The notes under the pieces are model-generated. The model saw only the letters and a list, made by a program, of their open reading frames with translations. It ran no database searches and was not told the DNA's origin. 61,895 bases of DNA from Carpediemonas membranifera BICM (lineage: Eukaryota; Protista; Fornicata): positions 1,810,946 through 1,872,840 of the forward strand of contig JAHDYR010000012.1 in the NCBI GenBank assembly GCA_019828565.1. Direction: 5' to 3'. Of this stretch, positions 56,098-61,397 are shown one piece after another. The stretch's first letter is position 1; every line of letters starts with the position of its first letter. The position numbers and the translations under genes are program-made.

Positions 56098-57350
56098 ATG
56101 GTCTTTAAGCTCTCCGCTGCCGATTTGACGCAACTACACAAGACTAACTACAGTAATACGTACATTGCCGACATTAGCGGGGTCAAAACTGTCGTCAAGG
56201 TCGATAACTGTATGACACTTCGCCTGACACACGAAAAGACGATACTTCAGGCAATGAAAAGCCCATTTATTGTTACAATCGTCGATGTGGGCTTTGTTGA
56301 CAGCGATCAAGCGTTTGCCACTCGCTTTGTTGACCATATGTCGTGGCGAGACGTTCTGGCACTACCAGTACCGGATCAATGTCGCTACTTGCGGCACTTA
56401 CTGTTAGCTCTCAGCCATGTGCATGAGAATGGATTCATCCACGGCGACATCAAGCCCGACAACTACCTTTTCAACCGAGAAGACGGTGGATTACTCATTG
56501 ACTTCGGCTCTGCCATCAAAATAGAGGCTCCTACTGGGATTAACAGGTATATGGGACAAGACATGAGAGGGACACCTGGTTTTATCCCCCCGAGCTTCGT
56601 GCCGACGAACTCAGTCGGAAATCGAAGCATTGTACAGTAGCTATGCGGGAACCACAGAATTTGAACCCCTTCCAGGCTTCCAGGAACACCACAACCAGAA
56701 ACACCAACATGCACACAGTTGATGCGGCATACGACATCTTTTCCTGCGGCGTTATCGTCCTCATGATGGCATTGCGACTGGATAAGTCTCCATTTCGATC
56801 TGTGAGAGTGGATGGTGGCAAGCCAAGTAACCCAGACGAGCATATTGGCGCTCTATATAACATGGCGTACTTCTACGGCCGCGAAATCACGATACACAGC
56901 AAGAAGAAGAATGCAGCCCGTGGTTTGATGATCAATCCGACTCTCTGCACGAGAGGAAGCCCTCCGACACAGTATAGGAGCCTTTATGACCTTGCAATGG
57001 GGATGCTCAGCTATAATCCGGAGGATAGACCAACAGCTTTGATGTGCGCTGAACATCTCAACGATATCGCCGCCCTAGCAGCAACGTTCGCATCAACACC
57101 ACTGATGATCAACGACCAGGTGACAATCTCTCAGGAAACGCTCGCTGCCGCCAAACTCACCGTTGAAGCACTTCGAGAAACCCGATTTGCTGGCCGATGC
57201 ATTGCATGTGGCATGCCGGTTCACGATAATCGAACAATAACTTGCAAGACACACCACCAAGATTACAGAAGCATCATGAACCCCCACACAAAGAGAAGAG
57301 GACGAGTTTGGAGGGTTCATCGTGATCTATCATTGATTATTGATATGTAA
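56098..57350 (+). CDS. Ser/Thr protein kinase, Cdc7-like, with C-terminal Cys/His motif (1-nt frameshift in the C-run near 56586-56591)
   Basis: VVK, HGDIKPDNYL, LIDFGSA, GTPGFIPP(E), DIFSCG, PEDRPTA; CIAC..C..HH. Confidence 0.85.
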
Positions 57351-57460
57351 CCGCCCAGTATCGAATCACCTCACTACCATGGGATGATCGCATTCACCTT
57401 CAAAGAAAGAGATGAGGCCGCATACTCGACCAGATATAAAGGAGATATGCTGCAGCCTTG

Positions 57461-57528
57461 AAAAGAAAGAAAGAAAGAAAGAAATTTATGGTGCTTGGAT
57501 TCTGACCCCGGACTGAGCTTGTTTCCCG
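57461..57528 (-). mobile_element. Micro-retroposon copy C
   Basis: 68 bp; core CCGGGGTCAGAATCCAAGCA; (CTTT)n tail; 13-bp TSD TGCTGCAGCCTTG. Confidence 0.85.
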
Positions 57529-57822
57529 TGCTGCAGCCTTGCGCTGGCTTTATAGACAATACCCAGTTGTTTACACTAAAACCGAAAAATCAGTCCAGTA
57601 GACGCTCGAATCGAACTGGAGTGGGGTGGCTGTGATACAGTGTTCGTTCCTGTAGTACCCAGGCAGAAGACCCGACCGGACGATATGGCCTGGAACTCTA
57701 CCGGCAAAAAGCAGCTGGCGGCCGCTGAGGAATATGTGGAAGGCGCTTCCAGAATGATCTTTACACTACTTTCTTTGCTTCTATCTTGTACTTACTGTTA
57801 ATCACTCTCATCATCTTTTTGT

Positions 57823-59480: not shown

Positions 59481-59542
59481 CGCACTTTAAAAGCAGCTTT
59501 ATGTGAGAAATGTATTGCATATAATTCTGCATTCAGAAGACG

Positions 59543-60400
59543 ATGGCTAGAACAAAGCAAACGGCTCGCCGGCCTACGCAAGGTGGAAAGGCGCCTCGCA
59601 AGCAGTTAGCAGCGATAGCTGCGCGGAGAGCGAATACTTCGTCGTACCGCACCTACAAGCCGTTGTCTCAGGCCGCGTTGGAGAATTGCACGGCAGTCCT
59701 GCAAAAGGCTGATGCTGATATCCAAGAAACTATTCTGTCGTGCATCAAGAAGACGGAGGCGCACAACTTCAAGCAGATGGTCAAGAATTCAACACGAGCT
59801 GGTTTCCGACTTGCATTCAACACTGAGTCCGAGTCTGTCCACATGAACCCATCGAGGAAGGACGAGGTGGCAGCGCGGGCAGAAGCTGCTTACCAATCAG
59901 CGCTGCATGCCTTCCGCAGCGTTGACCCTGAGACTGCTGCGACAGAAGATATGAAGACACTGCTTGACACCTTAGCGGTTGCTCTTGACGCAACGCCAGA
60001 TGTGCCACATGCTCGCCTGGATCCTGAAGAACAGCGTCGGTTCCTGAAGCTGAAGGATACGAAGAAATTCTCCAAGTACTGCCTTCCTCGCAGTGACGAG
60101 AAGTTTTTCTCGACCAATCTTCGCGCTGCCTTGCGCGAACACCTGGCGAAGGTGTTTCCAAACCTCCCTTGGAACAAGATTGTCTCCTGCTTCTCCCCTG
60201 AAGCGATCAATGCTGATTTCTTTATCCTGTCCACGAGCAATGCCACCTACGACGAAGCTTGCCTGACAATGCCGTCTGATGAGAGAAAGAAGCTTCGCAA
60301 CCATCTTTCCATGACTGAAGAACGGCAGATTGCTCGTCAAGAGATGGAGGTTGAGATTTACCAGTTTTTAAGAGAGCTCGGTATGTTCTCTACAGTGTAA
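59543..60400 (+). CDS. Histone H3 N-terminal-tail mimic fused to a non-histone helical domain
   Basis: MARTKQTARRPTQGGKAPRKQLAAIAARRA followed by ~255 aa lacking H3 histone-fold motifs. Confidence 0.85.
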   Translation: MARTKQTARRPTQGGKAPRKQLAAIAARRANTSSYRTYKPLSQAALENCTAVLQKADADIQETILSCIKKTEAHNFKQMVKNSTRAGFRLAFNTESESVHMNPSRKDEVAARAEAAYQSALHAFRSVDPETAATEDMKTLLDTLAVALDATPDVPHARLDPEEQRRFLKLKDTKKFSKYCLPRSDEKFFSTNLRAALREHLAKVFPNLPWNKIVSCFSPEAINADFFILSTSNATYDEACLTMPSDERKKLRNHLSMTEERQIARQEMEVEIYQFLRELGMFSTV

Positions 60401-60488
60401 AGATGCAATTGTTGACCATTGACTCGATCAGCGCGCCTCTAAACCCCACTATTCGAAGGCGTCTCTGCGGGCTGAAGAGACATAAAGG

Positions 60489-61397
60489 TTAAAACAGTTT
60501 AAGGAACTCGTCCAACGTCTTCGCATTGTGCGTCATGGCCACCTTGTCCTTCTTCGTCAACCTCGATTTGGTACCCTTTCTCTTCACAGTCGTCTTCTTC
60601 TTCTTAGAAGGCTCCCAGCTCCCATTGGCGCATGCTTTTCTTAGCTTCTTCTGCTCTAATCTGTACTTCTCCTCCTCCGTCATGTCTGCTTCCTTTTTCT
60701 TTGCCTTCGCCTTCTTCTTCGACTTCATTACATCTAACTTCTTCGCCTTCTCTGCATCCTCCTGGACCACGCGAGAAATTGAGTGCTTCACGTCCTTCGG
60801 TACATCACGATTCCTCGCATGCTTAACCACGACAAAGACATTATCGTCAGTGCCGCCACCTTCAAGGATGACCTTGTCCTTTGGGATCTTGCTGGTGGCA
60901 ACCAAGAAGCAGATCGGCTTCTTATCCACCTTGAATAGGGCAAACCTGCAGTTGCCAGCAGCCGAATGATGGCAAAGCTTGTTGACGCATGCTTCATCAG
61001 GAGTCATGAGGTGCAGCTGTGACGATAGCTGAATCCGAGAAGGCTGATCGCTAAGAACACCCTTGGCAATCCCGAGCACTTCTCCCTCATCAACATCGCC
61101 AGCCGTGACCAAACCATACATCATGTCATCGCCCTTTGACACCATGCATGTGCTGCACTTCAGAGAAATGAGCGATTGGCCGTCAAGCTCGACAATTTGG
61201 TCATCATCGAAAGGCAAGGCGTCTATCTTCATCGCGGCTTCGCCCATGTCCGCCCAATTTGCATAGACACGACGCGCAAGCTCTTCCGGAAAGCAATCGC
61301 AGCAAAAGTTGACAGTTCCACTTTCTTGCTGCATTCTACGCAGTTTATACCAGCAGTTTATACGCAGCAATGACACAGCACCAAGAGCGTGGCACAC
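60489..61397 (-). CDS. Divergent SET-domain protein with Cys-rich N-region and Lys-rich tail (5' end probably extends to ~61706)
   Basis: YGLVTAGDVDEGEVLGIAKG, NKLCHHSAAGNCRF and FLVATSKIPKD match SET motifs; terminal ELxxDY motif absent. Confidence 0.65.
   Translation of the reverse strand: MCHALGAVSLLRINCWYKLRRMQQESGTVNFCCDCFPEELARRVYANWADMGEAAMKIDALPFDDDQIVELDGQSLISLKCSTCMVSKGDDMMYGLVTAGDVDEGEVLGIAKGVLSDQPSRIQLSSQLHLMTPDEACVNKLCHHSAAGNCRFALFKVDKKPICFLVATSKIPKDKVILEGGGTDDNVFVVVKHARNRDVPKDVKHSISRVVQEDAEKAKKLDVMKSKKKAKAKKKEADMTEEEKYRLEQKKLRKACANGSWEPSKKKKTTVKRKGTKSRLTKKDKVAMTHNAKTLDEFLKLF

Follow-up and report, generated by a model that had tools for sequence, protein, structure and literature searches.

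A histone H3-tail fusion and its possibly chromatin-related neighbours behind a candidate transposon end in Carpediemonas membranifera

Transposons that carry one chromatin gene are already known, the cargo being SET, TET or the anti-silencing function of Vandal. The available part of PMC12730594 places SET genes in HarbingerS and MuDR transposons of Phytophthora and TET/JBP genes in fungal transposons, next to the plant element Vandal. Nematode Mavericks carry WASP/WOSP protease and KRMA kinase cargo by their left end, according to excerpts of bioRxiv 10.1101/2022.07.12.499685 and PMC10680173, and mimicry of the H3 N-terminus is described for human proteins such as VRK1 in the accessible portion of PMC8166343. 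In the present study, we analysed 61,895 nucleotides from Carpediemonas membranifera BICM, a free-living single-celled eukaryote (contig JAHDYR010000012.1, positions 1,810,946 to 1,872,840 of the forward strand; this whole stretch is called the window), and focus on four tightly packed orphan genes near its right edge, termed the cassette, which encode a protein kinase, a protease-like protein, a fusion of a histone H3 tail with an orphan body, and a SET-fold protein.

The observation behind the original prediction, which had been made from the letters of the window, is largely real, and the prediction is partly confirmed. The four neighbouring open reading frames (ORFs) that it had placed here were recovered when the frames were read; its kinase, H3-tail and SET calls hold, its OTU call holds moderately, and its caspase call stands at the level of motifs. 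It had proposed a selfish element or endogenous virus with a decoy/writer/eraser toolkit, of which the domain assignments mostly survive and the writer is probably wrong, while the element class and the action on chromatin are what we infer. It had missed three frame breaks at homopolymer runs, a second, decayed kinase, and a retroposon fragment between the kinase and protease genes. We tentatively read the cassette as the likely left arm of a young mobile DNA element; this arm would carry cargo genes that act jointly as a counter-silencing kit. We give this reading as a whole a little less than an even chance; that the block is mobile is probable. No paper on a compact set of H3-tail fusion, pseudo-SET, OTU and kinase was found in listings of the open-access literature.

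The H3-tail fusion and its neighbours

The cassette is densely packed, with head-to-head and tail-to-tail gene pairs, and comprises the following features together with what lies between and beside them:

59543 to 60400, + strand: H3-tail fusion, 285 amino acids, with about 29 H3-tail residues on a helical orphan body
59481 to 59542, no strand: AT-rich gap of 62 bp between the head-to-head protease and H3-fusion genes
57823 to 59480, − strand: protease-like gene of about 550 codons, caspase-like motifs followed by an OTU-like domain, two frame breaks
60489 to 61334, − strand: SET-fold protein, 281 amino acids, a predicted pseudo-methyltransferase
56098 to 57350, + strand: Ser/Thr protein kinase, weakly Cdc7-like, with Pfam Pkinase matches and one frame break at the C6 run 56586–56591
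61470 to 61895, + strand: second kinase, a C-lobe remnant (RGTHGYLPPE...FYSCG) related to the first kinase and running off the window
57448 to 57541, − strand: short retroposon 3' fragment with a GAAA tail and a 13-bp target duplication, between the convergent kinase and protease genes

The predicted H3 tail was borne out. It starts at 59543 and matches yeast H3 over residues 1–40 (E 6e-6), with 23 of the first 28 canonical H3 positions kept and one residue inserted. Its N-terminus, MARTKQTAR, is that of H3 and presents A-R2-x-K4 after a removable methionine, as in H3 N-terminal mimicry proteins; R2, K4, K14 and K18 are kept, and K9R, S10P, K23I and K27R are the alterations. Matches of the fusion in the PDB end at residue 47 or earlier, and its single-sequence model is helical at low confidence (predicted local distance difference test score, pLDDT, 47) and has no fold match. 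A divergent full histone H3 or H3 variant, CenH3 included, was rejected, the body ranking 213th of 248 listed sequences (itself plus shuffles) against a 36-H3-fold profile. The legend of Supplementary Fig. 7 of PMC8516963 reports further divergent variants of H3 in this species, and the alignment shown there may contain the fusion. The Pfam family of PAF15/PCLAF (PF15715) matched the fusion at E 0.039. The AT-rich gap upstream of the gene is a likely shared promoter of the fusion and the protease.

When viral loci were searched with the fusion, only true histones were found by way of the tail; of the 41 loci, two hold ORFs that are short or cut and one holds a tail-only fusion. The tail-only fusion, on a giant-virus-bin contig (locus L013, 4525–4962, + strand), joins H3 residues 1–26 to an unrelated 145-aa protein and forms a parallel case. 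Within the window, a 38-codon ORF at 57685–57801 (+) contains STGKKQLAAA, which echoes the H3 stretch STGGKAPRKQLA and may be chance. Two convergent orphan ORFs lie at 34018–35370, the minus-strand one starting with MTRSKQ, holding KTARKA and being faintly H3-like; a link of the fusion to this orphan (34612–35370) was unsupported (E 0.17).

The SET-fold protein had been called degenerate, which agrees with our results. The fold is supported by an ESM score of 0.95 and by template modelling scores of 0.61–0.69 to ten rows of SET clusters, all from one source; the Pfam SET match lies below the cut-off (E 0.02), that to SETD8 has an E of 0.24, and the single-sequence model reaches a pLDDT of 43. 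A home-made SET profile (3 of 7 loci) was too small to inform. In comparison with SETD8 and viral SET proteins, LCHHS stands in place of INHS and KVILEGGG in place of an ELLY-type motif, so that the asparagine of the NHS motif and the catalytic tyrosine of the last motif are absent; the C-terminal tail consists to 33% of lysine and arginine. The protein is thus predicted to be devoid of methylation activity, and the proposed role of a writer is probably wrong because the catalytic residues of SET are absent.

For the predicted caspase-like and OTU-like protease, the two parts fared differently. The gene reads across three frames, with breaks at the A7 run 59034–59040 and near the A5 run 58781–58785. 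Its C-terminal part retains Asp, Cys and His of an OTU-like domain (DGSC and a later His) and is placed with OTU clusters by ESM features (0.93; 172 of 256 features), the top cluster being 19% PF02338 and mostly Nucleocytoviricota. Neither Pfam nor the PDB gave a match to it, and its score in a pairwise comparison with one viral OTU, too small to inform, was equalled by 220 of 500 shuffles. The caspase-like part has its His and Cys motifs, IITGHS and IAACQS, in the middle of the protein, in a strand-helix order that is plausible by eye. With one break bridged by X, this part matched no caspase family in Pfam or the PDB at E<=10; against one viral metacaspase, likewise a small pairwise comparison, the best local alignment fell on the His motif and 83 of 500 shuffles were as good. 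The one metagenome match of the protease, at 25% identity, was rejected as chance, being a short bacterial-looking zinc-finger/helix-turn-helix-like ORF (L042).

The kinase carries the motifs DIKPDNYLF, LIDFG and GTPGF that had been noticed, and Pfam Pkinase matches its N part at E 5.2e-17 and its C part at 4.1e-4. The lysine, glutamate, catalytic aspartate and DFG are retained, the glycine loop is lost, and HGD replaces HRD. The best solved match is indeed yeast Cdc7 (E 5.9e-10, 42.3 bits), with S6 kinase nearly equal (E 1.1e-9, 41.4 bits) and the C part finding no match in the PDB; given this thin lead, we treat the Cdc7 likeness as a lead. A published table for the species, as far as it is accessible, lists separate Cdc7 and CenpA genes by name (PMC8516963). 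The kinase ends in a CxxC zinc-finger-like tail; by eye, a CxxCG-x-V...R...TC motif is seen both in this C-terminus (57200–57270, +) and in the orphan ORF 124–720 (−) at the left of the window. The second kinase is tied to the first by a pairwise E of 3e-5 (4e-4 among the frames of the window), without a Pfam or useful PDB match.

The candidate left end, a probable second copy and the surroundings

To the left, the block borders on two further features:

52503 to 55585, − strand: 3' part of a long interspersed nuclear element (LINE) with a GAAA tail and reverse transcriptase (RVT_1, E 3e-28), cut inside the reverse transcriptase domain and the probable insertion target
55586 to 56097, + strand: candidate left end of a DNA element, starting with CAGGGTT or AGGGTT, with four ACTCAAAA copies and an inverted repeat

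The alignment of the cut LINE to the left LINE of the window stops at 55576, beyond which the upstream residues of the reverse transcriptase are replaced; the break at 55585/55586 falls in the middle of this domain, and the paralogue continues past the stop point. No target duplication of more than 8 bp of the outer flank of the cut LINE was found to its right. Among seven retroelement tails tested, four have target duplications of 13–21 bp, and for the cut LINE and the two remaining tails none longer than 8 bp was seen; the missing duplication suits an insertion into the LINE, short of proof. The four ACTCAAAA copies at 55833, 55964, 55995 and 56016 are all the matches of the window and lie within 191 bp, followed by a 25-bp inverted repeat (56023–56047/56075–56099). 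The CAGGG start is one that we take to resemble hAT ends. The GC content at third codon positions (GC3) is 0.52–0.63 in six cassette segments vs 0.65–0.84 in five host genes, and Rfam gave no match across 52000–61895.

A second copy of part of the block is indicated by protein records. A search with the body of the H3 fusion among 1.84 billion representatives returned a single match, the Carpediemonas membranifera protein P0004, which is the H3-fusion gene with three one-base shifts; 126 of its 127 residues can be read from the DNA of the window, and the remaining residue, at the K27 position, is a K. The exact SET sequence shares with P0004 a recorded contig of 727,793 nt, whereas the exact beta-amylase of the window is recorded on one of 1,872,840 nt and its paralogue on a third of 786,103 nt. 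The simplest reading, which presumes that these records and the window share one assembly, is a very recent second copy of at least the SET and H3-fusion genes on another contig; alternatively, the H3 fusion may have a further copy on the same contig, or one locus may be represented in two assemblies. Relatives of the SET and protease genes outside this organism were not found at near lengths, the SET query matching only itself. The case of single-copy conserved host orthologues, which would have spoken against the original prediction, is therefore not what we see.

All three breaks of the cassette sit at homopolymer runs. A host pseudouridine synthase (24872–26199, +) is likewise read in two frames that meet at a T run, for which an intron is the alternative explanation, and a published genome of the species used nanopore data, the first polishing round having made 12,098 homopolymer corrections as far as the consulted part of PMC8516963 states. 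The siting of the breaks, the shifts in P0004 and the frame change of the synthase together make sequencing error likely.

The window as a whole is rich in transposons and comes from a eukaryote with few introns; it holds three long terminal repeat (LTR) elements, two LINE reverse transcriptase genes and host genes such as beta-amylase, a leucine-rich repeat protein and the pseudouridine synthase. The statement that no transposase is visible in it is not wholly accurate, as an IS630/Tc1-type transposase lies 37–54 kb to the left, with no link to the block shown. This gene (1401–1944, 17640–17670 and 18085–18460, +; NCBIfam E 6.4e-6) is split by a LINE-containing insert of 15.7 kb with a 21-bp target duplication, and the low-GC3 orphan ORFs 124–720 and 755–1435 adjoin it as a second candidate cargo element. 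A chromodomain-bearing LTR retrotransposon (44640–50680) has identical LTRs of 112 bp and an antisense orphan ORF of 268 aa inside (48749–49555). One tailed retroposon end occurs in three short copies (18237–18308, 18649–18709 and 57461–57528), each with a target duplication of 13–16 bp.

Weighing a proposed counter-silencing kit against its rivals

If the cassette is the arm of a mobile element as we propose, its genes would jointly counter the silencing of host chromatin, blunting or redirecting it; we infer all functional steps, binding as well as activity. The ARTK4 reader epitope of the fusion and its acetylation sites K14 and K18 would attract H3K4 and acetyl-lysine machinery. Because K9 is an arginine (as is K27 in this copy), the fusion might bind host readers and writers of H3 and be unable to carry the K9 mark, and could serve as a decoy, as a pseudo-substrate or, by recruiting activating factors, as an adaptor. 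The SET protein would bind or shield histone tails instead of methylating them, and the OTU domain may deubiquitinate histones or proteins that the element itself encodes, while the caspase-like part, if real, would process the OTU protein or others. Cdc7 phosphorylates substrates in chromatin and replication, and the cassette kinase may act on substrates of these kinds. The transposase or viral core genes would be placed to the right of the window. A bolder version, which we consider doubtful, would be that the large DNA elements of protists include a family not yet described, with a complete kit of this sort: an H3-tail decoy that is K9-proof and co-transcribed with the gene of a caspase-OTU protease, a SET protein that is dead and shields tails, and a captured Cdc7-like kinase firing replication or marking H3 where the element lies, in a host for which the absence of canonical origin-recognition machinery has been reported.

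Several points weigh against the proposed kit or against the mobile element itself. The host's own H3 may also have an arginine at position 9, in which case K9R would not set the fusion apart, and K27R is uncertain because P0004 has a K there. E(z) is reported to be absent from the metamonads covered in the available part of bioRxiv 10.1101/2021.07.16.452543, which weakens the reading of a K27 decoy, as this site may not matter. The caspase call failed every statistical test. Four ACTCAAAA matches were equalled by 5 of 100 shuffles, so that their clustering alone stands out in a motif picked post hoc. No transposase, integrase, polymerase or capsid was detected in or beside the block among the ORFs scanned, a part of 134 long frames, and the block runs off the window, with no right end or target duplication in view. 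Two of the four genes carry breaks, and of a fifth a remnant is present, a pattern that decay would produce. Finally, the copies indicated number only two, and they are known by way of protein records and the contigs bearing them rather than from DNA.

The block could instead represent one end of an endogenous DNA virus, or of a Maverick/Polinton-like element, its genes serving viral manipulation of the host. Such an origin would suit the nearest OTU clusters and the top SET cluster in ESM, which are mostly Nucleocytoviricota, the H3 tail on a non-histone body in 1 of 41 viral loci (L013), the lower GC and the dense head-to-head and tail-to-tail packing. Polinton ends begin with AG, and the left end here could do so as well. 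However, the kinase, the SET protein, the protease and the end sequence are without relatives in the viral contigs scanned, the ESM taxon labels give no sign of transfer, and no viral hallmark gene (polymerase, integrase, ATPase or capsid) is among the ORFs of the block, as far as it extends before running off the window. Among 28 H3-carrying viral records, mostly fragments, an OTU occurs in one, a metacaspase in one and SET in four, none having more than one of the three. No paper on Polinton-like elements in Carpediemonas was found in listings of the open-access literature. We consider a viral origin unlikely.

Equally hard to favour is the view that the block is mobile and its genes are passively captured host pieces in decay, with the H3 part a mere captured start plus nuclear-localisation signal and no joint function. 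The three frame breaks, the kinase remnant, the inserted retroposon and a SET protein without catalytic residues are in line with it, and Kojima, in the part of PMC12730594 at hand, reads TET cargo genes as passively passed between transposons. On the other hand, the breaks are all of the homopolymer type found also in P0004 and the pseudouridine synthase and are likely errors, the frames of the H3 fusion and the SET protein are open throughout despite their far divergence from any relative, and the catalytic residues of kinase and OTU are retained. Still less probable, in our opinion, is a lineage-specific host cluster after a recent segmental duplication, or an apparent second copy that stems from one locus being represented in two assemblies. 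Merely two copies are indicated, the argument from two contigs presumes a single assembly for all records and the window, metamonad proteins evolve fast, and divergent H3 variants are reported for the species (PMC8516963, in the portion consulted). A host origin fits poorly with the LINE that is sharply cut at the left edge, with a composition that differs from that of host genes and with the lack of relatives in other species among the records searched; moreover, the paralogue of the beta-amylase is recorded on the 786,103-nt contig and not on the one with SET and P0004.

Comparison with known systems

Taken as the arm of a mobile element, the cassette resembles HarbingerS and MuDR, the TET/JBP transposons and Vandal in being mobile DNA with chromatin-related genes, SET included, as these are presented in the accessible text of PMC12730594. 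It differs from them in joining four kinds of genes, among them an H3-tail fusion and an OTU-like protease, and in a SET protein predicted to be inactive. IS3EU, as described in the same portion of that source, also has a kinase as a regular passenger; this is an alpha-kinase, whereas that of the cassette is a typical eukaryotic protein kinase of the Pkinase family, and the left end reads CAGGGTT rather than TAYGG. With nematode Mavericks the cassette shares a kinase/protease cargo of a few kb at the left end, although, in the excerpts of bioRxiv 10.1101/2022.07.12.499685 and PMC10680173, the Maverick proteases are HtrA-like serine types and the kinases are CtkA-like with ubiquitin-like domains; Maverick core genes are not in view at the cassette. 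The domain kinds H3, SET and OTU occur in records of giant viruses too, without detected sequence kinship to the cassette and never together in the 28 records searched.

VRK1, PAF15/PCLAF and the fusion are alike in being non-histone proteins whose N-terminus resembles that of H3 and has R2 and K4, to the extent that PMC8166343 could be consulted. In contrast to VRK1 and PAF15/PCLAF, the approximately 29 residues of the fusion are a near-copy of H3, and they are encoded in a protist by what is probably a mobile element. If functional, the cassette would offer a direct probe of the histone marks by which a metamonad silences mobile DNA, and its fusion would be a transposon-borne histone mimic, comparable to those of viruses.

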